A stretch of DNA of 64,000 bases, taken from IMG/VR virus record IMGVR_UViG_3300029429_000001, positions 29,965-93,964 of that record, one strand, 5' to 3'. A program made the position numbers and the translations under genes. This DNA comes from a virus. Positions 27,393 through 46,727 of the stretch are shown piece by piece (within the stretch, counting starts at the first letter, position 1; the number at the start of each line of letters is the position of its first letter). The notes under the pieces are model-generated. The model saw nothing but the letters and a program-made list of their open reading frames with translations. It ran no database searches and was not told where the DNA came from.

Positions 27393-27439
27393 AGTCTATG
27401 GGGTCAGAGGGGAGGGTTTTGTGCCGTCGAATGTGTGTT
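27393..27439 (-). promoter_or_regulatory. putative late promoter (prt-pro)
   Basis: AACACACATTCG-N29-TAGACT. Confidence 0.8.
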
Positions 27440-27758
27440 ATTGCCCTGGCTGGATTTTTACGTTTTATAGACTAAGCTTTTAGTAGTGACCATTGATTAA
27501 GGGAGGTTATAGGGGCGTTTTTTCAGTCGTTGGGGGATTGCGGGATAGGGCCGTGCTCCAGAGGCGTAGAATTGCCCCTGGAAGGGTATATCTATTCAAT
27601 CGATCAATACCCTCCCCTATACATGAATTTCCGATAAATATCTATACCGGAAATTCAAATTATCGGGATAATAGGGGGGTTGGGTTTGTTTCAGGCATAA
27701 AAAAACCGGCACTTGGCCGGTCATTAATCGAACTATTAGGAATTACCGAATAGTTGAA

Positions 27759-27995: not shown

Positions 27996-28418
27996 TTAGC
28001 TCTTCACATAGTCCATCACGGCAATGACAGATTCCATCTCACGGTCCTCTAAAATGTAATCGACGGTCTCGCCATTACCTACCGGCAACACATAGCGATT
28101 ATTGCCAAAATTATTAGGGATACGGTCCAGTGATATCAACATGCCGGCCGCCACATAAAGGTAATCATCCGGGTAAAACTCGCCCAAACTACCCTCGTAA
28201 TTGTCGCCAAATTCATGGCCCATGGCATTAAGCAGCTCTTTAATTTTCCACCAGTAAGGACCAAAAGATCTATAGCGGGTCGGCTCTTTTTTGAGCTGGG
28301 CAGCGATACCATTGGGACCATCCAGGACCAATTTCAGCCACGCCACCCGGTCCTCATTTGCGCCATCAGCCGCCAGCGCATCGTCAATATCGCCCACGCT
28401 TATCGTTTCAAATTTCAT
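27996..28418 (-). CDS. ulx: P1 Ulx-like protein
   Basis: LKKEPTRYRSFGPYWW.IK.LL motif; position after darB. Confidence 0.75.
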   Translation of the reverse strand: MKFETISVGDIDDALAADGANEDRVAWLKLVLDGPNGIAAQLKKEPTRYRSFGPYWWKIKELLNAMGHEFGDNYEGSLGEFYPDDYLYVAAGMLISLDRIPNNFGNNRYVLPVGNGETVDYILEDREMESVIAVMDYVKS

Positions 28419-28562: not shown

Positions 28563-31500
28563 TTACCTATCCAGTAACTCAAGATAGTATTTAACGTCCG
28601 ATTCAATGTCGCTGACAGGCGTTAGCGTAATATCCTCGTTAGGCCTGCCCACAAACTTACTCAAAGTTTTAGGCCAGAAATACAGCCCTGCCCCCTTATG
28701 AGAAAGCTTGAACCTGGCGGCGATTTCCTTGCCGTTGTCACCCCTGGAAATATCTTTCTGTGTGGCCCCTTCCAGCTTGATATATTTCCCGGCCGGGAAT
28801 TTTTTACCCTTAACAGTTTTCTTATTCCTGCCAGTGTAATCAAGGTACTCCCATTCCCGAGTAATGATCTCAGCATCAAGTCCATGACGCGCAAAGCCAG
28901 CCTTTTGCTCAGCACTCAATACAGCGCCTCCCTCGGCTGCAAAAGCTTCCTGAGCGGCCTTAGATTTCGCTTCGATCTCTTCACGCTCAACAGCATCAGC
29001 CGCCTCTTTAAGTGCCCTGGCTTTTTCAGTCTCAACTCGTTCGGCTTCCCTGGCCTCGGCTGCCTCACGGTTTAGTCGTTCCCCCCTGGTAATGGATGCC
29101 TGGCTGCGATAGCCGGTCATCAGTCGAGTCTCAATTCTTTCTATGCCGATCACGATATCGTCGTAGTTGTCATAGCCCTCTTTGTGGACACTTTCAAGAT
29201 ACATGCGCAGAGGCACCTCATAACGCTCAATCATGCCTTCAGAGCGCCAGTTAACATCCTCAAGAAGCCATTTATAAAGCGCCTCACGATCCACCAGCAC
29301 TTCATCATCAAGGCCATTAACAAATTCAGTGAAGGCCTTGTCATATTCGCCGCCAGCCTCGGATATATCCTTAATCTTAAATTCTTCGTTATAGCGAGCC
29401 ATGTAATTCTCGCCGCCAACATAGGCCTTAAGGAAGGATAGAAGCTTTGCGTTGTTTGAGCCGGCGCCGAAACTTTCACGGGCCAGTTCCAGGGCTTTAG
29501 TCACGATCACGTCGTTACCGGGCTCAGGGAATACCACCTTGCCAAAATTTCGCTCATTCAAGGGCATATCATAGTAGGTGCCAAACTGAACAACCCCCTT
29601 ACCATCAAACAGAAACATGGACCCACTCGAGATGGATTCAATATCCCCATACTTAACAAGATCATCCTTTGAAAATTTATTAATGTAGGAATAAATTTCA
29701 TTGCCGTTTAATTGAGCAATCTCAACCTCAAGCTCAAGCTCAGGGCTTGCCGCAATCGGTTTCCAGGCTGCAGGCCACTTATTAAACGGTACACTGTAAT
29801 TTTCGCGTGCATTGCCATTGATCTTATTTGTTACCCAGTAGTCTCCGGATACACGGCTAATGGAAATGGTCTCCATACCCATATTAATGGAGCCAACGCT
29901 ATAAACGGCATGGCCATCGAAGTCGTTATCTTTTTGCTTAAAGGGCACGATCCGTACATAGCAGCCGGCATACAGCGCAAAGTTCATATTTCTAGGGGAT
30001 ATTACCTCCTCAGGGTTATCCAGCACTTCACGGCTAAATGGCAATACATCCCGGGCTTCTAGCTTAGATTTTTGACTGGCCAGGCGACGCTCTAAACGCC
30101 CTCTTTCGCTTTCAATCTTGGCTTTTGCGTCACTGACTAGCTTGGTCAATGGCTCATAACGCGGATTATCTTCGGTCATTACTCCCAAGGCTCTCTCGAT
30201 CTCCTCCAGGGAGCTATAGCCGATCAGCTTGCCATTGTAATCCCGTCTGGTTGTATAGGGCTTGCTGGCTTCCTGCATCTCGCCTTCAACGGTATACACA
30301 ATGTTCTTTAGTGCCCGGGCAGTTTTGGATAGACCCGCCAGCTGGGTTAATGCGCTTTTCTCCTTCATAACCCGGTCTTTTTCGACCTTGATTGCCGTCA
30401 TCTTATCGAGTCGAGCCTGGTAGGCCTCCTCACCTAATGTCAGGCGCATAAGTTCAGCAGATGCCTCGCTCGCAGCGTCCGGGTTTTCCATCTTGGCCTG
30501 GTCGCTTTTCATGATCTGGCCAATCCAGTTGGCTTTCGCTTTGAGAGATCCTAGGCGGTTAATATCCATAGACCCTTTGGCAACATAGTAATAAACGTCA
30601 ACATGGGACCTGGTATTACCCTGGCGCACGCCACGGCCGTTCCTTTGCTGGATACTCGCTGGAGTCCAGGGGAGTGTTAGGTGGTGAATGGCGCTAGTGC
30701 CTTTCTGCAGGTTTACCCCTACTTCCGCTTTTTGATTGGCAATGATGAATTTGAAATCGCCGCGGTTGTAAGAATCTGCAATCGCCTGCAGGTCCTCAGG
30801 TTTGCCGGCAGTGGTCGCGTTAATGATGGCAATTTCAGATTTCTTAAGCGAGGTGCTAGCCAGCAGGACACGCATTAACTTGCCGTGCTCACGTTTTTCC
30901 TCAGTGAAAACTATCTGCTTGCCCTTATCGTCAATGTGCTTTTTGATATTATCAATAAGCCTGGCGTATTTACCTGATATCGGATGCGATACCGTGTCCA
31001 TCAGCTTGGAAAATTTACCCATCTCCAGGCGTTTAACCACCGCGTCTTCAAACTCGTAAGGAAGTACGAATTGAACCAGTTTACCCTTACGCTCTAGCGG
31101 TATGGTTTCATCACGCTTAATGCTGACATTAACCTGCTTTTCTTTTTCCGGGTCGTATCGTTTGCCGGTAATGGACATTGGAATGCCCGTTGATAGCAGA
31201 TCTTTTACCAGGGCTTCATGCTTGGCCGGGAACCGGAAAGTCATCTGCTTGTAAAATAAATCTACATCCGTTGTGGCCTGCTCCATCTGCCGCATGATGG
31301 AAAAAATAGGCTTGATCGGTAGTGGCTGGCCATCCTCATCGAAGAGATCTGCATTCTCCGGATCACTCATGGACAGAATGGTTAACTCCAGCTCTTCTCT
31401 AAGGGTCGCGTAGATCTCCGTTTGCTCAGGGTCCAGATCGACCTCGGGCTGGTGCTCCACGGCCTCAGGTGGATTAATGCCATTATCGAATTTTACTTCT

Positions 31501-34500
31501 TTTGCGGTTTTCACCACGGCAAAACGATTAAACAGGTTTCTCAGGGCGGTTAAGTTTTCAAAACCAACAATGCCTTCTACCGATACCATCTCACCTGATA
31601 ACTTTTGAACGTCAACGCTGCCCTTGCTGGCGAATACCTCAACAAAATCGTCAGGGGTTTTAACGCCCATACGCTCCATTTCGGACATATCTGTAACCAG
31701 GGAAAGCGCGTTGTACACTTCGATGGGGCTGTTTGTGATAGGCGTCGCTGTCAACATCACAGGACCACGGCCGTTATTGCTGTCTTTTAAGTGACCCATC
31801 TTTATGGCCATATCGGTGCCGCGTGCACTGGCATCGGTTGCCGCTAGATATTTAAGCCCGCGTGTTTCTGAGGCTTCATAAATATTCTTATAATTATGCG
31901 CTTCATCCACAACGACCGTATCAAAACGTAAATCCTCGTAATACGGGAATGTGGCATTTTTAGTAGTGCCGTCGTTATCGTATTTCTCCTGCCATTTAGA
32001 TAATTTTTGAGCTTCTTTGTAATCAAAGCCCGGCTTATCTTTATCTTTGGCAGAATCCTTTTTGATTTTCTTGCGTTCTTTTTCGCTATAACCGGCTGCC
32101 GACATTAAGTAATCGGTAGCAGATCCATTGGAAAGCATTTCGTTTTCAACCATGCCGGCTGTGTACTCACTCATGGTCTCCGGGCGTAATGGGATAAGCC
32201 CAAACTGCGGCTGACTCATAACGAAAACTTTTTTATTGCTTTGCGTTGCTGCCCACAACTTGGTTTTGATTTCTTCAGGCGTGTCCTCTTTTATAACGTC
32301 CTGAAAAATCAGTTTGCCGTTAATCTTTTTCTGCTCAGGGCTTCCGTCCGGGTTTTTGTTTTCGGTATAGACAGGCTCTTGCTGCACTTCACCGTCATCA
32401 CCATAAACCGGGCTAATGCCGATAAACTGGTAATGGTCCAGGGACTTATGAATGGCACGGGCTTCGTGATACCAATTTGCAAGTACGGACTTGGGAACAA
32501 CAATGGCTGAGCGATTGGAGCGGCCGTTCTGGATATTGTATTGAATAAGTGCCAGGGCCGTGAACGTCTTACCCAGGCCAACATCTAGGCCAATAATACC
32601 TTTGCCGTCATCCGATATACGGCGCACGGTAGAGTTTTGAAAACCATGGGGCGCGATATCACCAGATAAGTTTTCCAGGCCTAGTACTGCCTCGGAATAA
32701 TTAACTGGCATGTGCGTGTTGAACGTCGCGTTGTATTGCTCAGCAATCAATCCAGACTCTTCATGCTCTCGCATAAAATCATTAAACTGGGTAATAAGGT
32801 CGCTTAACGTGTCGCGATATTCTGCAGCATTGGCGCCAAGCATTTTGGACCCGCCTTTAATTTTCCGCCACTCACCATCTTTATCAAAAGCGAACCCACG
32901 GTTTAAATGCTTGAGTAATTGCTGATCGAATAATTTAGGGGCGGTACCCGTGTGAGCCCAGCGCTTTGTCTCCTTATCGTAGAAAAACGGATAGCCTGCC
33001 AGGTCCATAAACTCTTCAATGTATTTTGGATTGGTCCACTTGTCGGTAAATTTAAGGTTTACATCCTTGAGCTCAGTGAATGGGCGATTTTTTAGAATGT
33101 AATCGCGCTGGTAATTGAACTTGGCTTTTTTCCTCATATCGCTTTCATTGCGAATCAAGACATTCAATTGCTGCAGTTTTTTGTACAGGTCTCCGGAGAG
33201 GTAATGCTCCATTGTCATCACATTGCCACTAGACGTTAATGCGATGCCTTCATTATCCAGCAGCTCGCGAATATCCGTCATAGGTGGCAGGCCGTCATAC
33301 AGGTCTAATACCGTATATGGGCTAACATCCAATTGGATCGTTTGAGCTGTCAGGTAATGAATGATCGATACCGGGTCGGTCGAGTCGTAGACAGGTACCG
33401 TGCTGCTTTCTACTTCACCGCGCAGTAATGCGTTATAGCCGCCGCTCTTTTGAACTGAGGCCTGGTACTGCATCCAGTCGCGTGCATTCGTAGAATTGCG
33501 CTTAACTTTGGCCTTGTGCGGGTTGCCGTGCTGGTGGATCTCTTTTGAAACGATGGCCTGGACAATCTCCAGCTGCTCGCCGTCGTTTTCTCCTTTTTGC
33601 ATGGCGAATGAATCACGGGCGATTACCTGACCAATCAATGAACCGCGCCACGCGATTTCCTGAAGGGGTCCATCTACCTCACCACCAAACAAAAACGCCG
33701 CGTTAGCTTGTGGGAACTCTCTGAGAAGCATTTTAGGCCAGGTCTTATTAACCGCCTGCACTTGATCATAAGACAAGGTTAAACAGCCTTCAGGCGTTTT
33801 AAGCTGATCTCTAAGCTGGTCCATGGACTCGGCGCCAAACTTGTACTCATCCAGGGAGTTTAGATCCAAGTTGAAATTAACAGATACCCACTTGCCGTTT
33901 TCTAATTCGTGCTGCACTCCGTTGATCGTTTGCGAATCGCCTTCAGTGTATTGAGGCAAATTAACCTCGGCACTCTCCAGGGCAGCCCAATCGATACGAG
34001 AATCAAATTTAGTGCCCAGTGCTTTACGAATCGCTGCCTGTTTCTCTTGCTCAGATCCATCAAACGCTACTACTAATCGCTTGCGCTGTTCGCCCACCAT
34101 GGATTGCGCACCCAGTAGGTATTTTTTGCCGGCGCCAATAAACCAATTACCCTGGATAAACTCGTTATAAAATACTTTGGTTTCTTCCAGTAGCTCAGGA
34201 TCAGCAGCTTTTATTTTTTCCAATAAATCCTTAGGGTGTTTCTTGAGTAAAATCACGTCCACCGGCACTTCGGTACCGTGCTGGCCCTTTTTAAAAGTTT
34301 TGGAAGGCATGCGAACGGCGCCCAAAAATTCGGCTTTGCGGCTGATTTCACGGCGAAACTGAGTAAAGCCCTTGGACTTGCGATCAACCACCCGAGTAGG
34401 AATAAGCAGACCCACCAGGCCGCCATAACGGACCTTATCGATAGAGCGCACAATAAAATATTGCTCCAGGGTTAAATCTTCGCGATCGGCATAGGCCGGG

Positions 34501-35441
34501 TCACGGCTTCTTAACGGCCTGCTATTTGAAAAAGGCACGTTACCGATGATCGCATCCAGGCTGTGATCCGGCATGCTGGCGGCTTGCTCTTCAAACGATA
34601 GGTTGTCCACGTCATCGTCAGGGTTTAACAGGTTGCATACTTTAGAGCTGATATTGCTGAGCTCACTGGCCACCACTTTGGTTTTAGCCGGCTTGGTACC
34701 CAGAAACACTCCGGACCCACACGACGGCTCACCAACAGATCCGCCGTTAAATCCGTTTTTCTTGAGCATTTCCCAAGTGGATTCCGCGGCATGCTGAGGC
34801 GTGTAATATTCTGTTTCGCTATTCTCTGATTTCAAACCACCGCGGCCGGTATAGGATGCCAACAGGTCGCGCTCTTCACTCGTTAGAACATGACTAGCAT
34901 CTATACTATCGATTAGCTGAATTACCCGGGCGTTTAGCTTTTCACGGGCAACGACGGCTTGGCCGGCTTTAACGCCAAAATCGAGACTCTTCTCCTGCTC
35001 ATTTGCTGCGAGGTCATCGATGGCGTCGAAAAATATCTCTTCAATCTCATCAAAACTATCCGCCCCTTTTATCATGGCTTCAAATTCTGCCAGGTCGGCA
35101 GCGTCTAAGATGGTGCCCGGGTTGCGGTCCAATATAGGCTCTTCTTTGTGGCGAACCGTTTTGCCGGCACCGGTAGTGGCGATTTCTGAGACCTCCTCAT
35201 AATCCATGTAGCCATCCACAGGAACGGCCTTCCAGGCGCTAGAATCCATCACATAGCTAAAGTCATGAGGGCTCATGGTTTTCAGCTCGATAGGCTTGCC
35301 CTGGAGGCCATGGGCCACATCAAGCAATGCCTGTAGTTCATCCACCTCTATACCAGGGCCGTCAATACTCGCCCCCGAATCATCAAATATTACTGAGACC
35401 GTCTCCCCGGACAGGGGAGATTTTGCATGAAACTTAATCAT
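28563..35441 (-). CDS. darB: DarB: N6-adenine methyltransferase plus SNF2-type helicase anti-restriction protein
   Basis: EYYTP, EPSCGSG, GNVPF (MTase); DVGLGKT, VVDEAHNYKN, LTATP, GVNLQ, QRNGRGVRQGN (helicase). Confidence 0.93.
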   Translation of the reverse strand: MIKFHAKSPLSGETVSVIFDDSGASIDGPGIEVDELQALLDVAHGLQGKPIELKTMSPHDFSYVMDSSAWKAVPVDGYMDYEEVSEIATTGAGKTVRHKEEPILDRNPGTILDAADLAEFEAMIKGADSFDEIEEIFFDAIDDLAANEQEKSLDFGVKAGQAVVAREKLNARVIQLIDSIDASHVLTSEERDLLASYTGRGGLKSENSETEYYTPQHAAESTWEMLKKNGFNGGSVGEPSCGSGVFLGTKPAKTKVVASELSNISSKVCNLLNPDDDVDNLSFEEQAASMPDHSLDAIIGNVPFSNSRPLRSRDPAYADREDLTLEQYFIVRSIDKVRYGGLVGLLIPTRVVDRKSKGFTQFRREISRKAEFLGAVRMPSKTFKKGQHGTEVPVDVILLKKHPKDLLEKIKAADPELLEETKVFYNEFIQGNWFIGAGKKYLLGAQSMVGEQRKRLVVAFDGSEQEKQAAIRKALGTKFDSRIDWAALESAEVNLPQYTEGDSQTINGVQHELENGKWVSVNFNLDLNSLDEYKFGAESMDQLRDQLKTPEGCLTLSYDQVQAVNKTWPKMLLREFPQANAAFLFGGEVDGPLQEIAWRGSLIGQVIARDSFAMQKGENDGEQLEIVQAIVSKEIHQHGNPHKAKVKRNSTNARDWMQYQASVQKSGGYNALLRGEVESSTVPVYDSTDPVSIIHYLTAQTIQLDVSPYTVLDLYDGLPPMTDIRELLDNEGIALTSSGNVMTMEHYLSGDLYKKLQQLNVLIRNESDMRKKAKFNYQRDYILKNRPFTELKDVNLKFTDKWTNPKYIEEFMDLAGYPFFYDKETKRWAHTGTAPKLFDQQLLKHLNRGFAFDKDGEWRKIKGGSKMLGANAAEYRDTLSDLITQFNDFMREHEESGLIAEQYNATFNTHMPVNYSEAVLGLENLSGDIAPHGFQNSTVRRISDDGKGIIGLDVGLGKTFTALALIQYNIQNGRSNRSAIVVPKSVLANWYHEARAIHKSLDHYQFIGISPVYGDDGEVQQEPVYTENKNPDGSPEQKKINGKLIFQDVIKEDTPEEIKTKLWAATQSNKKVFVMSQPQFGLIPLRPETMSEYTAGMVENEMLSNGSATDYLMSAAGYSEKERKKIKKDSAKDKDKPGFDYKEAQKLSKWQEKYDNDGTTKNATFPYYEDLRFDTVVVDEAHNYKNIYEASETRGLKYLAATDASARGTDMAIKMGHLKDSNNGRGPVMLTATPITNSPIEVYNALSLVTDMSEMERMGVKTPDDFVEVFASKGSVDVQKLSGEMVSVEGIVGFENLTALRNLFNRFAVVKTAKEVKFDNGINPPEAVEHQPEVDLDPEQTEIYATLREELELTILSMSDPENADLFDEDGQPLPIKPIFSIMRQMEQATTDVDLFYKQMTFRFPAKHEALVKDLLSTGIPMSITGKRYDPEKEKQVNVSIKRDETIPLERKGKLVQFVLPYEFEDAVVKRLEMGKFSKLMDTVSHPISGKYARLIDNIKKHIDDKGKQIVFTEEKREHGKLMRVLLASTSLKKSEIAIINATTAGKPEDLQAIADSYNRGDFKFIIANQKAEVGVNLQKGTSAIHHLTLPWTPASIQQRNGRGVRQGNTRSHVDVYYYVAKGSMDINRLGSLKAKANWIGQIMKSDQAKMENPDAASEASAELMRLTLGEEAYQARLDKMTAIKVEKDRVMKEKSALTQLAGLSKTARALKNIVYTVEGEMQEASKPYTTRRDYNGKLIGYSSLEEIERALGVMTEDNPRYEPLTKLVSDAKAKIESERGRLERRLASQKSKLEARDVLPFSREVLDNPEEVISPRNMNFALYAGCYVRIVPFKQKDNDFDGHAVYSVGSINMGMETISISRVSGDYWVTNKINGNARENYSVPFNKWPAAWKPIAASPELELEVEIAQLNGNEIYSYINKFSKDDLVKYGDIESISSGSMFLFDGKGVVQFGTYYDMPLNERNFGKVVFPEPGNDVIVTKALELARESFGAGSNNAKLLSFLKAYVGGENYMARYNEEFKIKDISEAGGEYDKAFTEFVNGLDDEVLVDREALYKWLLEDVNWRSEGMIERYEVPLRMYLESVHKEGYDNYDDIVIGIERIETRLMTGYRSQASITRGERLNREAAEAREAERVETEKARALKEAADAVEREEIEAKSKAAQEAFAAEGGAVLSAEQKAGFARHGLDAEIITREWEYLDYTGRNKKTVKGKKFPAGKYIKLEGATQKDISRGDNGKEIAARFKLSHKGAGLYFWPKTLSKFVGRPNEDITLTPVSDIESDVKYYLELLDR

Positions 35442-35449
35442 TAAATTAC

Positions 35450-38320
35450 CTAGTTGTTTTCGGATTGGATGGAACTCTTGAGGGGGGTGCTGGCGTTGAA
35501 TCCGCCGTGCACATGAGTAGGCTCATAAAATGAACTGGCCCTTTTTTCAATACGGGCTTTATCGAAGGTTCCTGAGCCCATCAGCAGCTCCTCCATGGCC
35601 ACAAGGGTCGTGATCTCAGTGTTTTCAAGGGTCGCTATATGTATGTCATTAGCGTCTTGGTGTTTGCGTATAGAGGACAAGCCACCGGTCTTGTCCAGTA
35701 AGAGCTCAATTTCCACGCCTGGGGACACATCAAACGAATGGGAGAATTCATAGTTAGTTTCTTCAACTACAACCTGGCCACCGGCTATCATGGATTTCCA
35801 ATGGCTTAGCAGCTGCTCGCGATAGTTTTTTGATTGGTCGAGTTTGCTGTGTTCATCGACTGAAAATTCGCGCTCCTCTTCAGTAACACCCGCCAGCAGC
35901 CCCATCATGAATTCAAAGGCTTCCGGGTCTTTGTGCTGCAGAGTGGCGGCTCGGGCTGGTGTGGACAGCTCTTGAGTGAGCATGGTGAAAATCTCGGTAA
36001 AGCCGTCCTTGTAAACTTTGCCCTGGTAGGCATTTACAAAGTTATCCTTAAACGCTATTTCAGTGTCTTTGTAGTTTTTGTTGTTATTAAGAACACTCAG
36101 CTTTTCGGGCTCAGTTTCTCCGGACTCGGCCGCACGGCGCCTTAGGAATGAATTGGCGCCGGCCTTGATCCTCGGGTTATTTTCGAGAATGTGGGTTAGC
36201 TCATGGAAGGTGGTACCACGTTCAACGCCGGTCCCCAGGTTGTATCTGTACGCCGGCACATTAGCGCTCGCTCGGACCTTCTTACCTCGCTTTTCTGGCG
36301 GGAAATAATCCACGGTCAAATAGGGAATGGCTCCATGGCATAGTTGGTAGAAATCAGCCACATCTTGTTTAAATTTCTTAAGCCCACGATCTCGCTTAAT
36401 TACCTTGAGGGCGGCCGGCTCGATCGTTATTGAGCCGGCCCATTTTTTAGCCTGCTTATCGGTTATAGGGCTAAGGGCAACTACTCCCTTTATTAGCTCT
36501 TCACCGGCTGCAGCTAATTTCTTTCGAGGCTCATTTTTGGCTTCCCGCAAGGCATCAAAAGCGAGCTCCTTAACCCTCCTCATCTCGGCCCATTCTTCGA
36601 GAGAGATATCATCCGCCCCATCACCATAAGCGGCATCATTTACCTTTTTCTTGGCAGCCTCATAGGCGATGTACTCGGGCAATTTTTGGAGCTTGTCGAA
36701 GTCGCCACGGTCGTTAATATCCCCCATGATCGTGGTTATATTTTCGGCTGCCAGGCCTTTTAGATATGCCCCGTCCTGGTCCAGACGTTTGAGCCCAAGT
36801 GTCTGCATTGCCCCCCTGGAATCCTGGAAAATATCGCCTTCAGATCCTTCCTTCATTCGCTCGATAGCCGCCTCAATTAGGGCGTTTTTATCATCGTCAA
36901 TTTGGGCGGATAGCAGCTGGTTAGGGTTGTTTTCTTTTAGGTATCTAAGGGCGGTCGAGATCGATGCCAGGCTCGATTGCTCATCAAGAACAGTGGCCAG
37001 GGCTTCATTGCTTTTGGCGTCCTTGATATCGGCCACAGACAGGTTTGAAAGGAATAAGCGCTTAACACTGGCCATGGTAGAAAGTATTAAAACAGCCCCA
37101 GAAAAGCCCCGTTTTGATACTAATTTGATACCGTTTGAGGATCTATCTAGTATTGTTTCGGTATTTTCCTCTAAAGTGACCTCGGACCACTCAGTGTTGA
37201 CACCATCGAGAATAAGGACTAAATTTGGGTTGTTGGACTCGGAGTTATGCACTAAGTCAGCCGCGTTTCCTCGCTTATGCTTGAGAGACTGTAATGGGAA
37301 TGCCTGCGCCCCCTCCGAGTCCAATAACACCTCTGTTTCATGTTCCCTGTTTTCACCATTCCCATAGTCAGCCGGGACTAGAAAACCATTCCAAACCAAT
37401 GCCCCTTTTTTAACCGAAACATTCAGTGGAAATGCAGCGTGCGTTTTATCCTTTGATACCCTCATGCCGGACTCAAGCATAAGGACACCTGAGGTATGTG
37501 GATGCCTAGGATCTGTGTTTGTGTAAACCCTGCCATCGATCGGCTTTGATCGAGATCCCTTTAGAAGATTGACCAGCTTCCGAACATCCTGCCTATGCCG
37601 AAGATAAATATGTGCAAGCTGGGAACCTGTAACAAAAAGATCTCGCTTCCCTGAAAATCCAGGGTTAAGTTTTGCCAACTTCTTAACTACGGTGGGAGAC
37701 AATCGCCCCAGCCTAAACACTGGAGACTTGTCTTTTCTCTTCTCAATTTTCATCAATGCAGATCGACTCCTGCCCTCGATGAAACTGAAGTATTCGGCCA
37801 AGCTCAAACGAGACTGAGCGGAATCTAGGACCTGGCTTGGAACATCCAGTACCCCCACCACGGCGCGCACTAGGGATTTAAACTCCTCGATAGGCATGGC
37901 CACGATCGGACCTAAAAATAATGGGTTATCGTACTGGGCAAGGTAGGCATCCCGGGCAGCTTGCTCGGATGAAAAGCCCAACATAACTTTATCTTCATCG
38001 TAATATTCTGGGCATGCGCAGCGTGCCGGCACAGACTCGCAATTAGGGCAGGAATCCCCAGGCCACTTGCTCACCTTTTCAATGGCGTGCTGTTTAACAA
38101 TGTAGGCATATTCGGCTTTGCGATCGGGACCGATATAAACGTCTAAGGCTTCCCCATCATTGCCAAGGGCGCCGCCGCGGATATAGCCATAATCCCACTT
38201 CATTTCTATTTCCCAATCCTGGCCATGAGGATCGGTGCCGGCGCGGATATCGCCTTGCTGATTTTCGATGGCTATGGATAAGCCCTGGAATGAATAACTG
38301 TCTTGCAGAGTAAAAGTCAT
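35450..38320 (-). CDS. polyvalent protein: inorganic pyrophosphatase domain, possible PBECR-type nuclease, HExxH metallopeptidase
   Basis: IAIEN..G..R.G.D..G..W...DYGYI...DGEALDVYIG...DEDKVMLGF; LAHIYLRH; FHELTHILE. Confidence 0.75.
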   Translation of the reverse strand: MTFTLQDSYSFQGLSIAIENQQGDIRAGTDPHGQDWEIEMKWDYGYIRGGALGNDGEALDVYIGPDRKAEYAYIVKQHAIEKVSKWPGDSCPNCESVPARCACPEYYDEDKVMLGFSSEQAARDAYLAQYDNPLFLGPIVAMPIEEFKSLVRAVVGVLDVPSQVLDSAQSRLSLAEYFSFIEGRSRSALMKIEKRKDKSPVFRLGRLSPTVVKKLAKLNPGFSGKRDLFVTGSQLAHIYLRHRQDVRKLVNLLKGSRSKPIDGRVYTNTDPRHPHTSGVLMLESGMRVSKDKTHAAFPLNVSVKKGALVWNGFLVPADYGNGENREHETEVLLDSEGAQAFPLQSLKHKRGNAADLVHNSESNNPNLVLILDGVNTEWSEVTLEENTETILDRSSNGIKLVSKRGFSGAVLILSTMASVKRLFLSNLSVADIKDAKSNEALATVLDEQSSLASISTALRYLKENNPNQLLSAQIDDDKNALIEAAIERMKEGSEGDIFQDSRGAMQTLGLKRLDQDGAYLKGLAAENITTIMGDINDRGDFDKLQKLPEYIAYEAAKKKVNDAAYGDGADDISLEEWAEMRRVKELAFDALREAKNEPRKKLAAAGEELIKGVVALSPITDKQAKKWAGSITIEPAALKVIKRDRGLKKFKQDVADFYQLCHGAIPYLTVDYFPPEKRGKKVRASANVPAYRYNLGTGVERGTTFHELTHILENNPRIKAGANSFLRRRAAESGETEPEKLSVLNNNKNYKDTEIAFKDNFVNAYQGKVYKDGFTEIFTMLTQELSTPARAATLQHKDPEAFEFMMGLLAGVTEEEREFSVDEHSKLDQSKNYREQLLSHWKSMIAGGQVVVEETNYEFSHSFDVSPGVEIELLLDKTGGLSSIRKHQDANDIHIATLENTEITTLVAMEELLMGSGTFDKARIEKRASSFYEPTHVHGGFNASTPLKSSIQSENN

Positions 38321-38346: not shown

Positions 38347-38393
38347 ATGCTAGCGGTATCTGCAGGGGGGAATTGAACCGGCGAAAGTGTGTT
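38347..38393 (-). promoter_or_regulatory. putative late promoter (956-aa gene and darB)
   Basis: AACACACTTTCG-N29-TAGCAT. Confidence 0.8.
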
Positions 38394-38439
38394 TCTTACA
38401 GGCATAAAAAAACCCCTTTCGGGGTCGCTTAAATAGCCT

Positions 38440-38697
38440 TTAATTTCTCCGGGCCAGATCGGTGATTAACCCGACAGCAGAGTTTAAATCATGACCACCT
38501 TGGGGCTCATCGCATACCGCAATAAGGTATTGCCCTGCCCCCTTGGTAACGATCGCAAGCGCCAGGCTATCAGCCGTTAATCGCTCGCCATTTTCAGACA
38601 CGATAACGCCTTCAATGCCGGCGCTATCCAGGGCAGCTTTTAAACGCTGGCCATCTTTTGCATACTCTTCATTTGAAACAGTCATAACAGAATCCAT
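38440..38697 (-). CDS. hypothetical protein
   Basis: ORF between two CCCC-GAAA-GGGG hairpins. Confidence 0.55.
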   Translation of the reverse strand: MDSVMTVSNEEYAKDGQRLKAALDSAGIEGVIVSENGERLTADSLALAIVTKGAGQYLIAVCDEPQGGHDLNSAVGLITDLARRN

Positions 38698-38719: not shown

Positions 38720-39037
38720 TTAAGCGGCCATATTGGCCTTGTAGTAATCGATTACAGGCTGTTTGATCTGGTCCACAGTGCCCTCCTCCTTTTTGACGAT
38801 ATCCTCTACCAGTTCGATAAAGGGTACCGGGTCATAATGGGTAAACTTACCCGCCAGCAACTCATCAAGACGGGTCAACACCTTGTCAACTTTAGCCTTC
38901 AAAGCCGCCAGCGCATCCATCATGGTTTTTTGCAGGGTACGGCGCTCCTTACGAACTACCCCAGGGACCACTAGGGCCTCCAGGGAGTTCATAACTACTT
39001 TCTGGTGTGCACGTCTCTCTTTCCTGGATAAGGCCAT
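38720..39037 (-). CDS. hxr: P1 Hxr-like protein
   Basis: LLAGKF...FI..V...DQIKQ....KAN.AA C-terminus; position after ddrB. Confidence 0.6.
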   Translation of the reverse strand: MALSRKERRAHQKVVMNSLEALVVPGVVRKERRTLQKTMMDALAALKAKVDKVLTRLDELLAGKFTHYDPVPFIELVEDIVKKEEGTVDQIKQPVIDYYKANMAA

Positions 39038-42000
39038 TACAGACTCCCCGCGGCTGCCGATAACAACTCAGTTAGCTTGTCAGTAGCCTGGTTCAATAGA
39101 TCATCAAACTCTTCAACGCGGCCGGCCTTTTCCAGGACCTCTTCCACTTCCTCCAGGATCTTGTCAAATTCAACGTGGTCGGTTTCTTCACCAGCAACCA
39201 AACCGTTTAATTGATCGATTGCCACCTGCTCAGGGTTTTGGGTTTCAGGATCAACCACCGGGGCCGACTCAGAGCCTTTTAGCTTTTCAAGTAAAACCTT
39301 CACCGGCTTCCCTTCCATTCTTGAAATTTGAGCGCCAAGTACTCCGGCTAATTTTTCCAGGTCCGGGTAATCCTCTCGATATGTGTCAGCATAATCATTG
39401 TCAATTAGCGCAGCATCGACAATCTGCCTTAAGGTTGCAGGGACAACCACAATCGCATTGTCATCAAAATTATTTGAGATCATTTTAATGGCTGGACCGT
39501 CTGTTCTTGGGTCTATTGCTACCCAATACTGGCCTCTTGGCCCTGGCCCTGTAGCGTAATCATCACCAACTAGCGGTCTAGGCGCATTGAAAAGAATCCA
39601 ATCCTTATTTAGACCATCAGGAATTTCTGATTCATAAATACCGTCAGCATCAAGTATTTGCTGATAGGTATTTAATGCGGCATGGCCAGGCTCGGGATTA
39701 ACCTCAGGTACCGGCTCAGGGACCACCTCAGGCTCCGGAGCTCCACCGGTCAATAGGTCCGGCTGCATATCATCGCTGCCGAAATTTACATCAAGCTTGG
39801 TACCCACACGGTTTAAGATATCGGATAACGTAACCGGTACCGGCTCGCCAAACATATCGGCTACTGCCAGGCGGTTTCTAATCAGCTCAGCATTCACCTC
39901 AAGTGCCATTAATTTAAAGGCCTCAGCAAGGCGGGCAGATGAACGGCCGTTTTCGCTAATGAATATGGCCAGTGCTGCAGTGCTCGGATCAATATCACCA
40001 AACAAGCCCTGTTGCTTAATCAATTCCTTAATATCGTGCCCATCACGACGTGCCTGGCGTATCAGCTCAGTGGCGCCAGTAAGGGCCGACATAGCTTCCT
40101 GGTCTAAGCTCGTTTCAATACCATCAGCTAGGCCTGAACCCATTTGATCGGCCGCGTCTGCAGACAGTGCACGCATCTCAATGAAAGCCGGCGCAGCGTT
40201 ATTCATGGCCTTGATAATGTTCTTTTGCTCATCGGTTGTTTCTTCAACAGACAAAGCAATTAAACGCTCATCATTAAAGGCCTTGGCAAAAACAGCCGCT
40301 TGCATACGGATCTGGGCAGCCTGGTTAGGTTGGCCATCCGCAGTCATTAATGAGCTCGCATCATTGCCGCCGATCGCTTGCATAAACTTGCTAACAAACG
40401 AACGGTTTGAAGCCGCCAGCAGATCGCCAGATTCACTAGGCTCAAAAACATACATCATGGCATCGTCAATGGCTTGGGCATCCGTCTTGGCAGTTTCAAG
40501 TGGGCTCATTGCCTGCAGGTCCGATTTGTTTGCTTCCTTGGCAAATTGAACACGATCAAGCTCAGTGATACGTTCGCGCACCAGGATTGGGTCCTCCATT
40601 CCTTCGATCATTTCAGCTTTTAAACCAAACTTGGCAGCGTTAGCAATTATCCAGGCGCGATACTCGTCTGCATTGCCTTCCTTGTATGCTTTTTTAATGG
40701 CCATGGTACGGCCGTTGCCAGATTCCACGGCATTATCACCGCCAACGATCGGAGCACCCTGAGAGGCATTCACACTGTCGCCAAGGTGCTTAGGCTTAAG
40801 ATTGGTCGAGATGGTTTGCACTTGAGCAATGCTGCCGGCGCGTGTGCGATCGCGAGGCTGTAATTCGCTTGGGAATTCCGGGTTAATGGTGCCGTCGGTA
40901 TTGTTTGAGGCCTTCAGCTTTTTAGCTTCGATCACCTTAAACTTGGTATCCACTTCGGTACCCATGGCGGTATCAACCTGGCTAAGTGCGCCCAATGGAG
41001 TCTCATAGCGAGGACCCGCGGCCACCTTAGGGCTTTGCAGTTCGCTAACTTGCTCGATAACACCATCAAGATCAAAAATGTCAGTACTAAAGCCTGCACC
41101 TGTAATCATGTACTTACCGCTACCCTGGGGAATGATTTTTAAATCATTCAACTGAGGCAGTTCAATAGAATTACCCAACAAGGCCTCTTGTACCTGCAGG
41201 CCTTCCGCCTTAAGAGCTTTAACCAGGGCTGTATTATCGGTACCGCCGAATCCAGTCTCAGGCTTTTTGCTAGCCAGCTTTTTAAAGCCAAACTTACCAA
41301 TAATATCCAAGATAGATAACCCCTTAGGATCGCCGCCGTAATCCTGATCATAAAGCAGCTCACCTTTAATTTGCCCCTCAGCTGTGAAACGGGTCTTGCC
41401 ATCATTACCGGCAGGTCGGAAATTAATCTCATTTTCCCCCTCGCCCACAACGTAAAGACTATTTTCCATAATCGTTACATGACGAACGGCTGCAAACTTT
41501 TCGATAGTAGCGGCATCAAGCTCCATTTTTTGATTCCGACTTTCTTTTTCTGCCTTAGCTTTATCCTTCTCAGGCGTAGCCACAGCCAGCATCTCTTCAG
41601 CCTTTGTAATCAAGTCATCAACATCAACACCAGGTTCAGTTAAATCAAATTCAACTTTAGTTTCGCCAGCCTTAATACTGAAAATAGGCACAGGGAACAT
41701 ATCGCCCTGGTACTTAACCAATACGCCGGCATTAAACGCCATGGCATCGCCGCCAACATACTGATCACGTTCGCCACTGGTCATGGAAAAACCAATTTCA
41801 TCTAACTGGTTCATTACCTGGATGTACAGATACTCGAAAATGGTTTCCGTGTACTGAATGAAATCTCTATTCGCCATGTAACCAGCGAAAGACATACCGG
41901 CCTTGCGAGCCTTGGCTAAATCATTCATCACCTCTTCAGGTAATTCTAGGTCCTGTATCGGTCCAGGAATTAAAGACATATCAAGCTCTACATCCTCGCC

Positions 42001-44019
42001 TTCACGCTCCTCAATAAACACAACCCGGGCCCCTTGGGACAGTAGGGTTAACTCTAAGCTTTGCCCTTTAGGCATTGTTAACTGATATACATGCGAGTTA
42101 TTGCGAGGGTTAGAATGGAATGACGCTGAATTTTCTTGCAGTACTGGGTATGCCCAGGCGATATTGCCCTGGCTAAGTACAGCAGGTAGCGCTAAATCCA
42201 AAGCTTCCCAGGCGCCGGTAGAGGAATCAAAACTGCCTTCTCTTTTAGCCTGGTTTGGTAAACCCTTGATCCATGCAACAAGCTCAGCCTCGCGAGATCC
42301 AGCCTCACCGCCTTCACCATCCGTATCAATACCCTTAATCTGGCCTAGTGTTTTAGGGGTCCAGTAAAGATCGATTTCAAAAGAAGGGCTATTCACCATC
42401 TCTTCAATTGAGATATAACCAAGCTCAGCACCCTGCCCCAGATTACCCAAACCAAAGGCCTGCTTAACGCCGCCTTCTACATCCTTCTCAGTGATATGGC
42501 GATCTATTGAGCTGGAGAAATAGTGAAGGTATGCCACGGCTTTATCGCCCATACCATCCTGGCCATACGTCTCAGGCATGCCATCGATGGTAGCCTTGAG
42601 TTCAAGCATTTTTTCAGCCATACCCTCGCGCTCATCACCTTTACGGAGCATATCCGCAATAACCGGGCGCTGGCCCTTTGGTATAAAGTGCATGATCGCC
42701 AGCATGGCATCCTTGCCCTTTTGGACCACGCTTTTTTCTTCCGGCTTATCACCATTAGAGGCTGGCTTGGCCTGGAGATTCAGCCTGGCCAGGTCTTCCT
42801 GGTAAACCTTGTCCATGCCGGCGATTGGCTTCACGGTGCCTATTAATTTGTGATCTGGATGGGGCGCGTCTATGCGTTTTTCTAGGTTGGCGTAAGAACC
42901 GCCGACGTTACTTAACCAAACAGTTTCGCCGTCGCTATCCAGGTCCACCAACTTAACCTTTTCGTTCATCCACTTGTGGGTGTACTCAATTTCTAGGGTG
43001 CTGTCCTCGCGCTCTTCTGCCCAGAGTCTAAAATCCAAGTCATGAAAGCGAGCGGCGCCGATATTATCAGCAGCTTTGGCCAGAGAGGTTTTGATCTGGT
43101 ATGCAATCTCTTCGTCGTGCCCCGAATTCTCTTCAATAAACTTGGCAAAACCAGGGCGCATATCGGCCGGTACCGTAGACAATAAGAATACTACGTCCGG
43201 GTTTTGCAGCATTTTAACGGTGCCGTTTTTAATGCCGTGTCGGTGCATATAACTGGCGATGGCTTTTTCATATTGGGCCACGTCGCCAGCAGCCCCAGGC
43301 AAGCGTCCTAAAATAGCGTCAACCTCGGCTAATTCATCCGGAGACATTTTGCCCTCAGCTTTCAGGGTTTTAAGCTCGTTAATCGAATAGGCCGGGATTT
43401 TACCCAGTACGTCCGGCTCACCACCTTGAGATTCAATGTAAGCTTCCATCTCGGCAGATAACCCTTTCTGGGCAGCAAAGCCACGCCACTTTTCAAGGTT
43501 GGCAAAGTGCATAGAAATACTGCGGAAATTCTCATTGAAAATTTGCGCGGCATCCATGCTATTACTGCCCCGAATATCGATAGCATTCTGCAATGAACTG
43601 GCAATGGTGCCTAAGGCCTGCAGGGTATTATCAATTTTTACTTTTATGCCCTTGGGAATATCGGCCTCCGGAGCAACTTCAGGAAAACGGCTAGCGTAAA
43701 TCTGGCCAATCATATCAAGCTGCAATTCGTACTTTTGCGGCAGTGTGCCGGCAGCCTTGGCGCCGTTTAATAAGTCCAGCGCAGCCTTGAGCTCTTCCTG
43801 AGATACCTTGTAAGAATTGATAGTGGCCGCGGCATCGATCGCAACCAGGTTATCATTGCCACCCACAACAGTAAGCCCTGGCTTGCCGGCGAGCTCTGCT
43901 TTCATTCCATCTATTTCAATCTGAATTTTTGCTTTAGTATCTTCATCAGTTACTTCTAACTTCCGATCACTAAATGTCTTAATATTTTTTAATAAATCTA
44001 ACTTACTTTTACGATCCAC
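39037..44019 (-). CDS. ddrB: DdrB-like polyvalent protein (DUF2958-like domain plus ddrB-ParB domain)
   Basis: LQPRDRTR...GAPIVG...VESGNGRTMAI; LHYF...QAFGL...ELGYISIEE...DLYW. Start is GTG 44019 or 44058. Confidence 0.8.
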   Translation of the reverse strand: MDRKSKLDLLKNIKTFSDRKLEVTDEDTKAKIQIEIDGMKAELAGKPGLTVVGGNDNLVAIDAAATINSYKVSQEELKAALDLLNGAKAAGTLPQKYELQLDMIGQIYASRFPEVAPEADIPKGIKVKIDNTLQALGTIASSLQNAIDIRGSNSMDAAQIFNENFRSISMHFANLEKWRGFAAQKGLSAEMEAYIESQGGEPDVLGKIPAYSINELKTLKAEGKMSPDELAEVDAILGRLPGAAGDVAQYEKAIASYMHRHGIKNGTVKMLQNPDVVFLLSTVPADMRPGFAKFIEENSGHDEEIAYQIKTSLAKAADNIGAARFHDLDFRLWAEEREDSTLEIEYTHKWMNEKVKLVDLDSDGETVWLSNVGGSYANLEKRIDAPHPDHKLIGTVKPIAGMDKVYQEDLARLNLQAKPASNGDKPEEKSVVQKGKDAMLAIMHFIPKGQRPVIADMLRKGDEREGMAEKMLELKATIDGMPETYGQDGMGDKAVAYLHYFSSSIDRHITEKDVEGGVKQAFGLGNLGQGAELGYISIEEMVNSPSFEIDLYWTPKTLGQIKGIDTDGEGGEAGSREAELVAWIKGLPNQAKREGSFDSSTGAWEALDLALPAVLSQGNIAWAYPVLQENSASFHSNPRNNSHVYQLTMPKGQSLELTLLSQGARVVFIEEREGEDVELDMSLIPGPIQDLELPEEVMNDLAKARKAGMSFAGYMANRDFIQYTETIFEYLYIQVMNQLDEIGFSMTSGERDQYVGGDAMAFNAGVLVKYQGDMFPVPIFSIKAGETKVEFDLTEPGVDVDDLITKAEEMLAVATPEKDKAKAEKESRNQKMELDAATIEKFAAVRHVTIMENSLYVVGEGENEINFRPAGNDGKTRFTAEGQIKGELLYDQDYGGDPKGLSILDIIGKFGFKKLASKKPETGFGGTDNTALVKALKAEGLQVQEALLGNSIELPQLNDLKIIPQGSGKYMITGAGFSTDIFDLDGVIEQVSELQSPKVAAGPRYETPLGALSQVDTAMGTEVDTKFKVIEAKKLKASNNTDGTINPEFPSELQPRDRTRAGSIAQVQTISTNLKPKHLGDSVNASQGAPIVGGDNAVESGNGRTMAIKKAYKEGNADEYRAWIIANAAKFGLKAEMIEGMEDPILVRERITELDRVQFAKEANKSDLQAMSPLETAKTDAQAIDDAMMYVFEPSESGDLLAASNRSFVSKFMQAIGGNDASSLMTADGQPNQAAQIRMQAAVFAKAFNDERLIALSVEETTDEQKNIIKAMNNAAPAFIEMRALSADAADQMGSGLADGIETSLDQEAMSALTGATELIRQARRDGHDIKELIKQQGLFGDIDPSTAALAIFISENGRSSARLAEAFKLMALEVNAELIRNRLAVADMFGEPVPVTLSDILNRVGTKLDVNFGSDDMQPDLLTGGAPEPEVVPEPVPEVNPEPGHAALNTYQQILDADGIYESEIPDGLNKDWILFNAPRPLVGDDYATGPGPRGQYWVAIDPRTDGPAIKMISNNFDDNAIVVVPATLRQIVDAALIDNDYADTYREDYPDLEKLAGVLGAQISRMEGKPVKVLLEKLKGSESAPVVDPETQNPEQVAIDQLNGLVAGEETDHVEFDKILEEVEEVLEKAGRVEEFDDLLNQATDKLTELLSAAAGSL

Positions 44020-44079
44020 AATAAAACCCTTATAAATACAGTGTAAAAGGTCGCGCACATATCGGCGCGACCGGACAAA

Positions 44080-46050
44080 TTAAAGTTTTTCAACTATGTA
44101 ATTAAATAATTTGTCCCATGCCTCGCCCACTTCACCATCAACATCGGCAACAGCTCTTAGTCGCTCCAGCAATGTCATTTGGTTTTCATACTGCCAGCTA
44201 GCCGCTTCCTTCAGCTGCCAAAGACTGGCCACCTTGGGACCATCTATTTCATACCAACGGTTCATTGCGTTCTCTGCGTAGCGCAGTGCATCGTCAGCCT
44301 TTTCAAGATCGTCTTTGGTAGCTTTGTAGCAGAATGAAGCGATTAGCTTGTTAGCGGGCTCTACCAGGCTTTGGATCATATCTACCCGTGCAAACTCATC
44401 GTTTGAATAGCCTGATCTTTCAGTGCGAAAAATCACGGTATCGATAAGGTCCCGGTACTCTTTAAGCGCAAGCTCTTCAGTGCCCTCTTTGCCCCAATCG
44501 AAAATATCTTCACCATATTTCTTAGCGAAAATAGTTTTCATTTTAGTGCGCAGCTTCCACACGCCATTGCCGCCAGCGATAACCTGCTTAGGCGCCATAT
44601 CCCCATACTCCTGGATGAAATCCAGTGCACGGTCCACAGCATTAAATTGGCCGGCTTTGTGAGCTCGCTTGATCGCTTTCACGATATACCCGGAGTACAT
44701 GGATCTGGGGTATTCACCCTCGGCTCCGGTATCCGTTAGATAAACCTGCATAAAGTTATCAGCCATTATCTTGGCAAGAACAGCCCAGCCGGCCATATCG
44801 GTAGCCTCTTGGACACGTTCGATAAACTTAAGCAGCATCGGTTTATCTATATCAAGATTGCCCACCATCTTTCCCTGGACCGTCTCGTTTTCATTGAGCT
44901 CCCGGGTAACATTTTGGCCCTTGGCCAGGCTTTCTATATCTTGATTGGCCGATTGCCAGTTTTTACCTAACAGCATGTTCAGCAGGTTTTCACCGGCCGT
45001 TGTCAGCTTGTTTTTATTTAGGTATTTGGCGTCTGTGTTTAGCTGGTCCCGTACCGCGTCAAAATCAGATAGGCCTAGCTTGCGGGCTTTTTCTTTGCGG
45101 AACTTTGCGGTAGTGGTGCCAGTAATAAACAAGGCGATGAATTGCACGACGGTCATGCCCATAGCTTCCAGGCGCGCCATGATAGATTTCTCATCTTTCA
45201 CATCGGGCTCAGGGTCCGGTACCACTTTGGCCTTGGCGTCTTCGACTCGTTTCTGCAGATCCGCCAGCTGTTTGGTCAGTTCATCATTAAGGTCATAGGC
45301 CACGTCAATGCGTCGGTCGCTATCTAACTTAAAGTTCTTATTCCACTCAGTGGATTCGTCTTTATCAGCAATAGATTTCTCTAAATCGCCAATTTCATTG
45401 CCCAGGCTAACTTTTTGCTCTTGAGCACTGGCCAGGGCTTCTTTATCTGATGCCATGCCTTCTTGGCGCTCAGTAAACTTAGCTGTATTGGCCGCTACTA
45501 GCTGAGCAACGCGATTACCTAAAGTATTAAGGGCAATGTCCACCAGGCCGTTATTGTCCGTCTCAGGACTCATCCAGGCCGTAACGTCGCGAGAGTTCAA
45601 TAACCAACGAAAACCAATCAAGGTATCGTCTTTGGTGATTTTTTCGGGATCACCATCGGGCGCGTGAAATACCACACTGATTGACTGGCCATCCGACAAC
45701 GGGAACTTAACCGTTAACGTACCGATCATGCCGTTTTTACGAGGCTTGCCTATTTCTGGCTCCAGGACTTTGATTGCAGGTCCCGCTTTACCCATAGAGG
45801 TATTAAAGGCGCGCTGCAGGGCTCGCATTTTTCGGCTTAATCGAGAATTTTCTACCACGATGGAATCGAGAATAAACTGGTGCATGAGCTCGCCACCAAA
45901 GGCGCTATCCAAAACATCCAGGGAATTATCTTCAAACGCTGCGTGCGGGTCATCGCCCTCAGACATTGCCGCGGTGAATGCCGCTATATGCTCCGGAGAA
46001 AACCCAACATTAGGGCCGTCTACAAAGTTGTTAATTTTTAAACCTTTCAC
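44080..46050 (-). CDS. darA: DarA anti-restriction/head protein
   Basis: DarA_N motif LSDGQSISVVFHAPDGDP..I...DTLIGFRWLLNSRDVT. Confidence 0.88.
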   Translation of the reverse strand: MKGLKINNFVDGPNVGFSPEHIAAFTAAMSEGDDPHAAFEDNSLDVLDSAFGGELMHQFILDSIVVENSRLSRKMRALQRAFNTSMGKAGPAIKVLEPEIGKPRKNGMIGTLTVKFPLSDGQSISVVFHAPDGDPEKITKDDTLIGFRWLLNSRDVTAWMSPETDNNGLVDIALNTLGNRVAQLVAANTAKFTERQEGMASDKEALASAQEQKVSLGNEIGDLEKSIADKDESTEWNKNFKLDSDRRIDVAYDLNDELTKQLADLQKRVEDAKAKVVPDPEPDVKDEKSIMARLEAMGMTVVQFIALFITGTTTAKFRKEKARKLGLSDFDAVRDQLNTDAKYLNKNKLTTAGENLLNMLLGKNWQSANQDIESLAKGQNVTRELNENETVQGKMVGNLDIDKPMLLKFIERVQEATDMAGWAVLAKIMADNFMQVYLTDTGAEGEYPRSMYSGYIVKAIKRAHKAGQFNAVDRALDFIQEYGDMAPKQVIAGGNGVWKLRTKMKTIFAKKYGEDIFDWGKEGTEELALKEYRDLIDTVIFRTERSGYSNDEFARVDMIQSLVEPANKLIASFCYKATKDDLEKADDALRYAENAMNRWYEIDGPKVASLWQLKEAASWQYENQMTLLERLRAVADVDGEVGEAWDKLFNYIVEKL

Positions 46051-46680: not shown

Positions 46681-46727
46681 AGTCTATGGGATAGGCTAGG
46701 CGGGAAATGAACCGTTGAAAGTGTGTT
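46681..46727 (-). promoter_or_regulatory. putative late promoter (hdf-darA operon)
   Basis: AACACACTTTCA-N29-TAGACT. Confidence 0.8.

Follow-up and report, generated by a model that had tools for sequence, protein, structure and literature searches.

We analysed a stretch of viral DNA of 64,000 nucleotides (nt), hereafter the window, which comprises bases 29965-93964 of the 93,964-bp virus record IMGVR_UViG_3300029429_000001 (completeness rating 95%); coordinates refer to the window throughout, unless the full record (G000) is named. The subject of this report is the open reading frame (ORF) at 35450-38320 on the minus strand, whose product of 956 amino acids (aa; protein P0001) we call X. 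About two dozen proteins encoded in the window and the rest of the genome match proteins of phage P1 at 24-50% identity, including the sheath, capsid, portal, Pro, terminase and baseplate proteins and all six Dar (defence against restriction) proteins: judged by these protein matches, the virus is therefore a distant P1-like phage, and a megablast search with the X gene and a 24-kb block against deposited phages and plasmids found no close DNA relative. Within this phage, X is on balance probably a phage-type polyvalent protein and an extra member of the P1-like Dar head-cargo set, and the linkers between its domains carry hydrophobic-Leu-Asp motifs (xLD in the following) that are candidate cut sites for Pro, the prohead protease homologue. 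The gene and the parts of its product are laid out as follows, a slash within a motif marking the proposed cut:

35450 to 38320, minus strand: whole gene X, polyvalent protein, intact and 956 aa long in the ORF list and its translation
37856 to 38296, minus strand: InPase (type I inorganic pyrophosphatase-like) domain, X aa 9-155, Pfam PF18823, E 5e-32
38009 to 38050, minus strand: insertion with four cysteines, CPNC-x6-CACP, X aa 91-104, inside the InPase domain, from an alignment of InPase domains with and without the insert
37811 to 37855, minus strand: linker 1, X aa 156-170, with VLD/V (157-159) and VLD/S (164-166), only partly conserved in orthologues
37331 to 37810, minus strand: middle domain, X aa ~171-330, possible PBECR-type RNase, from ESM Atlas leads
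37136 to 37330, minus strand: linker 2, X aa 331-395, with LLD/S (332-334), ILD/G (370-372) and ILD/R (390-392), predicted local distance difference test score (pLDDT) ~22
36554 to 37135, minus strand: helical region before the peptidase core, X aa 396-589, with partial conservation to the N-terminal parts of family members
35831 to 36553, minus strand: zincin-like metallopeptidase (DdrB-C-type MPTase), X aa 590-830, predicted from an AlphaFold2 (AF2) model, structural alignment and the family profile
36191 to 36205, minus strand: HELTH motif, X aa 706-710
35453 to 35830, minus strand: C-terminal alpha/beta domain, X aa 831-956, AF2 pLDDT 50-80, conserved only in P0002 and P0008

The sole full-length orthologue of X in the searched protein sets is P0002 (37% identity by BLASTP, 41% in a MAFFT alignment), the start codon of which matches that of X, whilst P0008 is a shorter relative in which the middle domain is missing. 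A pattern scan of viral contigs seeded by a single sequence returned no relative; the scan seeded from the alignment returned three. An ORF of 232 codons lies antisense within X (36669-37367, plus strand), for which we see no support and which is probably spurious.

The genes around X run on the minus strand in the order hdf-darA-ddrB-ddrA-orf85, then X-darB-ulx, then portal (prt)-pro, all with P1 homologues:

46047 to 46664, minus strand: hdf
44080 to 46050, minus strand: darA
39037 to 44058, minus strand: DdrB-like gene, 1673 aa, with a DdrB-ParB domain
38720 to 39037, minus strand: DdrA-like gene, 105 aa (PHROG 1855, E 2.4e-9; weak match to P1 DdrA, BLASTP E 0.02)
38440 to 38697, minus strand: 85-codon ORF (orf85)
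38411 to 38426, minus strand: terminator-like hairpin with T-run, which ends the hdf-darA-ddrB-ddrA-orf85 unit and precedes the late box of X
38374 to 38393, minus strand: late-promoter-like box AACACACTTTCGCCGGTTCA, beginning 73 nt upstream of the X ATG
28563 to 35441, minus strand: darB, downstream of X and predicted to be co-transcribed with it, 2292 aa with SNF2/methylase domains, 34% identity to P1 DarB
27996 to 28418, minus strand: ulx-like gene, final gene of the X unit (PHROG 1629, E 9e-15; BLASTP match to P1 Ulx)
25663 to 27369, minus strand: portal gene
24635 to 25663, minus strand: pro, prohead protease homologue and candidate processing enzyme, 342 aa (30% identity to P1 Pro, E 7e-37)
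38383 to 38393, 46717 to 46727, 48017 to 48027, 27429 to 27439 and 1714 to 1724, minus strand: copies of the late box, with further copies at 5769 and 14990 of record G000

As the 105-aa ORF matches the DdrA-like PHROG 1855 and not Hxr, ddrA is present and positioned after ddrB. X sits between ddrA/orf85 and darB, and is hence encoded within the dar operons. An earlier note on this DNA, made from the letters alone, had placed X before darB and had given it a late promoter of its own. The first is plainly so, with the X ORF ending 8 nt ahead of darB (the two may be translationally coupled), and the second is well founded as a motif: the sequence AACACACTTTC is found at the 73-nt distance from the X ATG, with a hairpin before it, and seven late genes or operons have the box AACACAC[T/A]TTCG.CGG, in sense orientation throughout, 63-127 nt on their 5' side; besides X these are hdf, the portal gene, the capsid gene, a baseplate operon and two other ORFs. 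Six matches were counted in the window against 1.0 expected (six or more in 0 of 100 shuffles), and four of the late-box positions parallel the P1 late promoters LPdar, LPpro, LP23 and LP26. The P1 late-promoter consensus AAGTGACTT is absent upstream of X, the box of this phage differing from that of P1, and no homologue of Lpa was seen by BLASTP at E 1e-3. A near-identical hairpin-TTTTTATGCC cassette is present 3' of ulx (27704-27722, minus strand); this hairpin and that at 38411-38426 are each followed by the identical 16-mer GGTTTTTTTATGCCTG with a late box just beyond, which looks like a repeated terminator-promoter cassette. Since the late box and the terminators delimit the unit, X is predicted to head a late X-darB-ulx transcription unit that is bounded by terminators.

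The N-terminal domain of X scores 110.9 bits against the Pfam InPase family (PF18823, cut-off 26.8), in agreement with the pyrophosphatase that had been read from the sequence. Its acidic motifs IEN, DYGYIR, D..E.LDVY and YDEDK are conserved among the relatives of X, with equivalents kept in more distant InPase domains, and the putative metal-binding residues E19, D43, D55, D60 and D108/E109/D110 are invariant in three orthologues. The Cys-rich stretch CPNC...CACP, also pointed out previously, is by alignment with other InPase domains a genuine insertion and a feature of a sub-clade: it is common to X, P0002, P0008 and the DarB protein of a relative, L005, partial in L006 and missing in P0003 and L007. 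InPase domains have been suggested to clear pyrophosphate or a nucleotide-like signal (Iyer et al. 2017, PMC5512222).

The C-terminal half of X contains a region that recurs widely: more than 1300 cluster representatives contain the X peptidase region, most of them ~600 aa long and with no Pfam domain, some fused to InPase, PBECR1 or LPD3. In the family alignment H706, E707 and H710 of the HELTH motif are present in at least 90% of the rows, Y770 and E776 are invariant, and E713, Y765, G767 and K768 are likewise invariant or kept in at least 90%. An AF2 model of the peptidase from a 59-sequence alignment reached a pLDDT of 81.9 (>90 over the core), and in exhaustive structural alignment it was closest to PPEP-3 (Z 9.6, 156 residues aligned, root-mean-square deviation (rmsd) 3.7), the catalytic domain of anthrax lethal factor (Z 8.8) and PPEP-2 (Z 8.5), followed by M1 aminopeptidases and thermolysin (Z 5-6). 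A Foldseek search of the same model against the PDB gave nothing at E up to 0.001, the matches being weak (E 0.09-0.5). On the strength of this model we confidently predict a zincin fold for X aa ~590-830, with HExxH and a downstream third ligand as a putative metal site: the metallopeptidase that the earlier note had seen around HELTH is borne out. Like the M34 zincins (PPEP-1/2/3 and anthrax lethal factor; Z 8.5-9.6, 148-162 residues aligned, rmsd 3.6-4.3), the model shows a HExxH helix and a downstream Tyr...Glu; however, identity to them is 11-14% with no Pfam match, and the resemblance is one of fold and not of family membership. Pfam searches at E up to 1 matched only InPase in X, the MPTase-PolyVal family PF18818 matching neither the X peptidase nor P1 DdrB. 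The homologue in Xanthomonas phage Rb1 is annotated as an M12B reprolysin, a reading that we reject for X because the metzincin motif does not fit (HELTHILENNP against HExxHxxGxxH, a Glu standing in the place of the Gly and the third His being absent); Pfam gives no match either. The C-terminal domain behind the peptidase (aa 831-956) gave weak fold matches only (Z 4-5).

This peptidase has a counterpart in P1. By BLASTP, X aa 610-783 align with P1 DdrB aa 783-962, with FHELTH opposite WHELGH (E 9e-7), and a profile from 152 members of the peptidase family matches P1 DdrB aa 774-989 (E 1.1e-24); within the present genome X is the sole match of this profile. A duplicate of the peptidase in the phage's own DdrB was considered and discarded, as the similarity of the DdrB-like protein to P1 DdrB is confined to the ParB part (aa 26-428) and the peptidase module is missing; in this protein (39037-44058, minus strand), about 1000 aa of unrecognised sequence stand ahead of the ParB domain. 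By these alignments, the C-terminal third of X is the DdrB peptidase module relocated to another gene. X and P1 DdrB share a homologous module with HExxH (X aa ~590-810, DdrB aa 774-989) that is encoded among dar genes; in P1 it is joined to the DdrB-ParB domain, whereas in this phage ParB is found in the separate 1673-aa protein and the peptidase is joined to InPase and a probable RNase. The view that X has no counterpart in the P1 dar set must therefore be narrowed: in consequence of the DdrB homology, only the InPase and middle domains are additions to that set, and as regards its C-terminal third the gene is not an extra one.

The middle domain is more difficult to assign. It is conserved between X and P0002 (~30% identity), with an invariant AH[IL]YLR in a predicted helix that includes the invariant H237, and S289, K290 and H294 are conserved as well. 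In the ESM Atlas, the middle domain of X gave a feature hit of 0.90 and structure hits with template modelling (TM) scores of 0.57-0.64 to PBECR2/PBECR3 clusters, in many of which there is a fusion to a MuF head protein, and that of P0002 gave PBECR3/2/1/MuF_C clusters with feature scores of 0.86-0.89. The sequence searches returned no such match: hidden Markov models of PBECR1/2/3 (PF18809, PF18810, PF18812) against the genome at E up to 10 had none, nor did the domain itself against Pfam at E up to 1 or against phages by tblastn at E up to 1, and both two word-seeded searches of a set of 5.8 billion proteins and a two-sequence profile run against 151 fetched proteins gave nothing, save for one fragment, 80 aa long, from a 91%-identical relative. 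AF2 on the two-sequence alignment produced a poor model (pLDDT 39.8), which was left out of the fold search; it predicts the helix with H237 and then four strands. PBECR domains are described as an N-terminal helix with a His, followed by 4-5 strands with a conserved Ser/Thr (PMC5512222), and the His in the first predicted helix with four modelled strands would fit this description. Taken together, it is quite likely that the middle domain is a PBECR-type RNase, a class suggested to cut RNAs of the host or of defence systems (Iyer et al. 2017, PMC5512222). Thus, the domain search and structure prediction proposed in the earlier note recognised the InPase and the zincin peptidase and left the middle domain without a profile match, so that its wording 'nuclease-like' is a reasonable but unproven call.

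With InPase, zincin peptidase and a third conserved globular region, X combines at least two distinct effector or enzymatic domains, and it is encoded by a phage among late and virion genes, as the P1-like structural genes in the record and the late box upstream indicate. It resembles in this respect the polyvalent proteins (Iyer, Burroughs, Anand, de Souza, Aravind 2017, J Bacteriol, PMC5512222), in which unrelated enzymatic domains are found in one polypeptide from a late or virion gene. InPase, PBECR and zincin MPTase are all on the list given there (InPase and PBECR2 as phage-only domains), in line with the statement in the earlier note that these domain types recur in polyvalent proteins. 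Every domain type in X, and the concept of packaged multi-domain precursors, are hence already known (PMC5512222); new here are the architecture of X and its position in the Dar locus, the separation of the two DdrB modules and a predicted cleavage motif that ends in Asp. Apart from one orthologue, the searched protein sets contained no other case of this combination and of its place at the head of a darB operon.

The relative L005 (IMGVR_UViG_2871215625_000007) shows the same modules in a different arrangement. There the InPase is part of DarB (10231-17265, 2344 aa), in which it occupies aa 114-284, shares the 4-Cys insert and is 53% identical to X aa 2-172; the peptidase stands alone as a protein of 584 aa, in the gene order hdf, darA, peptidase-only protein, InPase-DarB, ulx, portal and pro, with no ParB-type ddrB between darA and darB. 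This spread of the modules over separately encoded head proteins argues that they need not stay joined.

Support for the proposed cleavage comes from the xLD motifs. In X, [ILVM]LD occurs at aa 157, 164, 332, 370, 390, 444 and 874, i.e. seven times against 1.3 expected from shuffles (P = 2e-4), and five of the seven lie in the two inter-domain linkers, with the proposed cuts after residues 159, 166, 334, 372 and 392. The motifs of linker 2 (LLDS, LILDG and [IV]LD[RE]) are kept in P0002 amid divergent sequence with indels, the last of them also in P0008, and the 91%-identical fragment has ILE/G at the second site, a conservative acidic change. The earlier note had drawn attention to LD motifs at the domain boundaries and had taken them for cleavage sites: for linker 2 the placement is conserved, for GVLDV/QVLDS of linker 1 it is not, and as candidate sites the motifs are supported by their enrichment and by an alignment with cut sites in P1. 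The P1 capsid protein gp23 is cut between E120 and S121, as mapped experimentally (PMC9024508), and in a pairwise alignment its TNKAMLE/SVAAEM occupies the same columns as TNNPILD/ST of the capsid protein of this phage; the L005 capsid protein has SVLD/SAGG at this site. P1 DarA loses a fragment of ~9 kDa, and its residues 1-69 are not seen in the virion structure (PMC12810830): the inferred cut TDLLE/AI (residues 66-68) aligns with FILD/SI in this phage and ILD/A in L005, and a second P1 DarA sequence, EIE/A, corresponds to VLD/S here and VMD/S in L005. Since xLD aligns with the gp23 and DarA cut sites, a hydrophobic residue-Leu-Asp, then a small residue, is the probable head-protease motif of this clade, corresponding to hydrophobic-Leu-Glu in P1, where the analogous [ILVM]LE[SAGN] is found in Pro, gp23, DarA and gp21.

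When [ILVM]LD was counted in 104 ORFs of this genome, the head set had 5.3 motifs per 1000 aa and the remaining ORFs had 0.78 (Fisher P = 9e-12); the head set had been partly picked after the counts were seen and includes X itself. By protein, the motif is distributed as follows:

Pro: 11 in 342 aa, the densest
P1 gp21 homologue: 4
capsid protein: 3, all within the first 106 residues (propeptide)
DarA: 2, both near the N-terminus
DarB: 7, three of them in the N-terminal extension
X: 7, in the positions given above

In Pro (24635-25663, minus strand), the 11 motifs are each followed by S, N, D or G, and the Pro of L005 has six, which suggests extensive self-cleavage of Pro.

Head packaging of X is plausible because its operon sits among dar genes. 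Most likely, X would enter the procapsid with the other Dar proteins, where Pro would cut it after the Asp of the xLD motifs in the two linkers; the resulting pieces would be an InPase of ~17 kDa, a middle domain of ~19 kDa and a ~62-kDa piece of helical region, peptidase and C-terminal domain, and the separated enzymes would exit the head together with the DNA and might act against host defences. In its full form, this reading holds that the Pro of this clade has changed its preference before the cut from Glu to Asp and dices a packaged three-enzyme precursor into separate injected effectors, a polyprotein strategy in which the DdrB peptidase module is one of the pieces; we put it, tentatively, at a probability of about 0.35. 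Several observations speak against this account of X as a whole, in addition to the partly post hoc choice of the head set. The linker 1 motifs are not strictly conserved (GVLDV/QVLDS becomes ..YVHF../VMDA in P0002, with VMDA and VLKE in orthologues), and X, unlike the DarB of this phage, is without an N-terminal extension that could serve as capsid-targeting peptide. The stand-alone 584-aa peptidase protein of L005 has no xLD motif, and the middle-domain assignment lacks a profile or reliable fold match. X may alternatively be limited to helping DarB load into heads, the role that is reported for DdrB in P1. Finally, processing of P1 DdrB to ~76 kDa has been reported, although no xLE motif lies where that cut would be expected; this family may therefore be the target of a different protease, possibly of its own peptidase domain.

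The last point leaves self-cleavage by the peptidase as a live, if unlikely, rival: the zincin domain of X would do the processing, either in cis or on other Dar proteins, and the xLD motifs would be docking motifs or chance and not protease sites. The peptidase motif is intact and conserved throughout the family, as described above, and in polyvalent proteins the hub domain is most often the peptidase (PMC5512222). The C-terminal module of DdrB has been named MPTase and is proposed to process DdrB itself (Iyer et al. 2017, PMC5512222), and in the model of polyvalent proteins the domains are freed by proteolysis after delivery, with the cutting assigned to the peptidase domain (PMC5512222). 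Against this, xLD aligns exactly with cuts ascribed to Pro in the capsid protein and DarA of P1 and is densest in Pro itself, so that the evidence for X points to the prohead protease and not to the MPTase as the cutter, and this family is not known to process itself; cleavage by Pro and self-cleavage are not mutually exclusive. That X is not cut up at all, being either packaged as a whole multi-enzyme protein or a late cytoplasmic factor whose DdrB-type module aids the loading of DarB into heads whilst its other domains act in the producing cell, is similarly improbable: the position directly before darB with possible translational coupling, the want of an obvious N-terminal targeting peptide and the example of the N4 virion RNA polymerase, which has a peptidase domain but is packaged unprocessed (PMC5512222), would fit, yet the excess of xLD motifs, five in linkers and three conserved across ~60% sequence divergence, and the separately encoded modules in relatives argue otherwise. 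Both the domain calls and the idea of LD as a cleavage site in the earlier note have received independent comparative support.

Trimming of head cargo by the prohead protease is known in other phages: in T4, where gp21 cuts after Glu in L/I-x-E, and in phiKZ, with gp175, the prohead protease trims the capsid protein, internal cargo and itself at a motif with an acidic end. The proposal for X differs from these in that the motif ends in Asp and not in Glu, and in that the cuts would separate whole enzyme domains and not a targeting peptide. P1 Dar are the best-studied anti-restriction proteins carried in a phage head, and the X locus shows how freely Dar modules are re-dealt, with the DdrB peptidase apart from ParB and the InPase outside DarB here and fused into DarB in L005. 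A head-protease cleavage motif with five cut sites is a concrete and cheaply testable prediction: if true, it would provide a sequence rule that predicts mature head cargo in P1-like phages, together with candidate linkers for putting foreign proteins into capsids. X, as a compact natural construct with an InPase and a putative PBECR, is in addition a convenient test object for the function of cargo domains.

Two further proteins with xLD motifs deserve mention. The DarB of this phage has a 165-aa N-terminal extension (34947-35441, minus strand) that is not in P1 DarB, with xLD at aa 39, 103 and 111; it may act as a capsid-targeting propeptide that can be removed. The homologue of P1 gp21 lies outside the window (G000 1484-2194, minus strand) and adjoins the sheath and capsid genes; in its 236 aa there are four xLD motifs, and the protein is acidic in the middle and strongly basic in its tail. 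P1 gp21, which is annotated in P1 as 'baseplate or tail tube', has two xLE[GA] motifs, and the homologue may be a head-processed protein and not a tail part.

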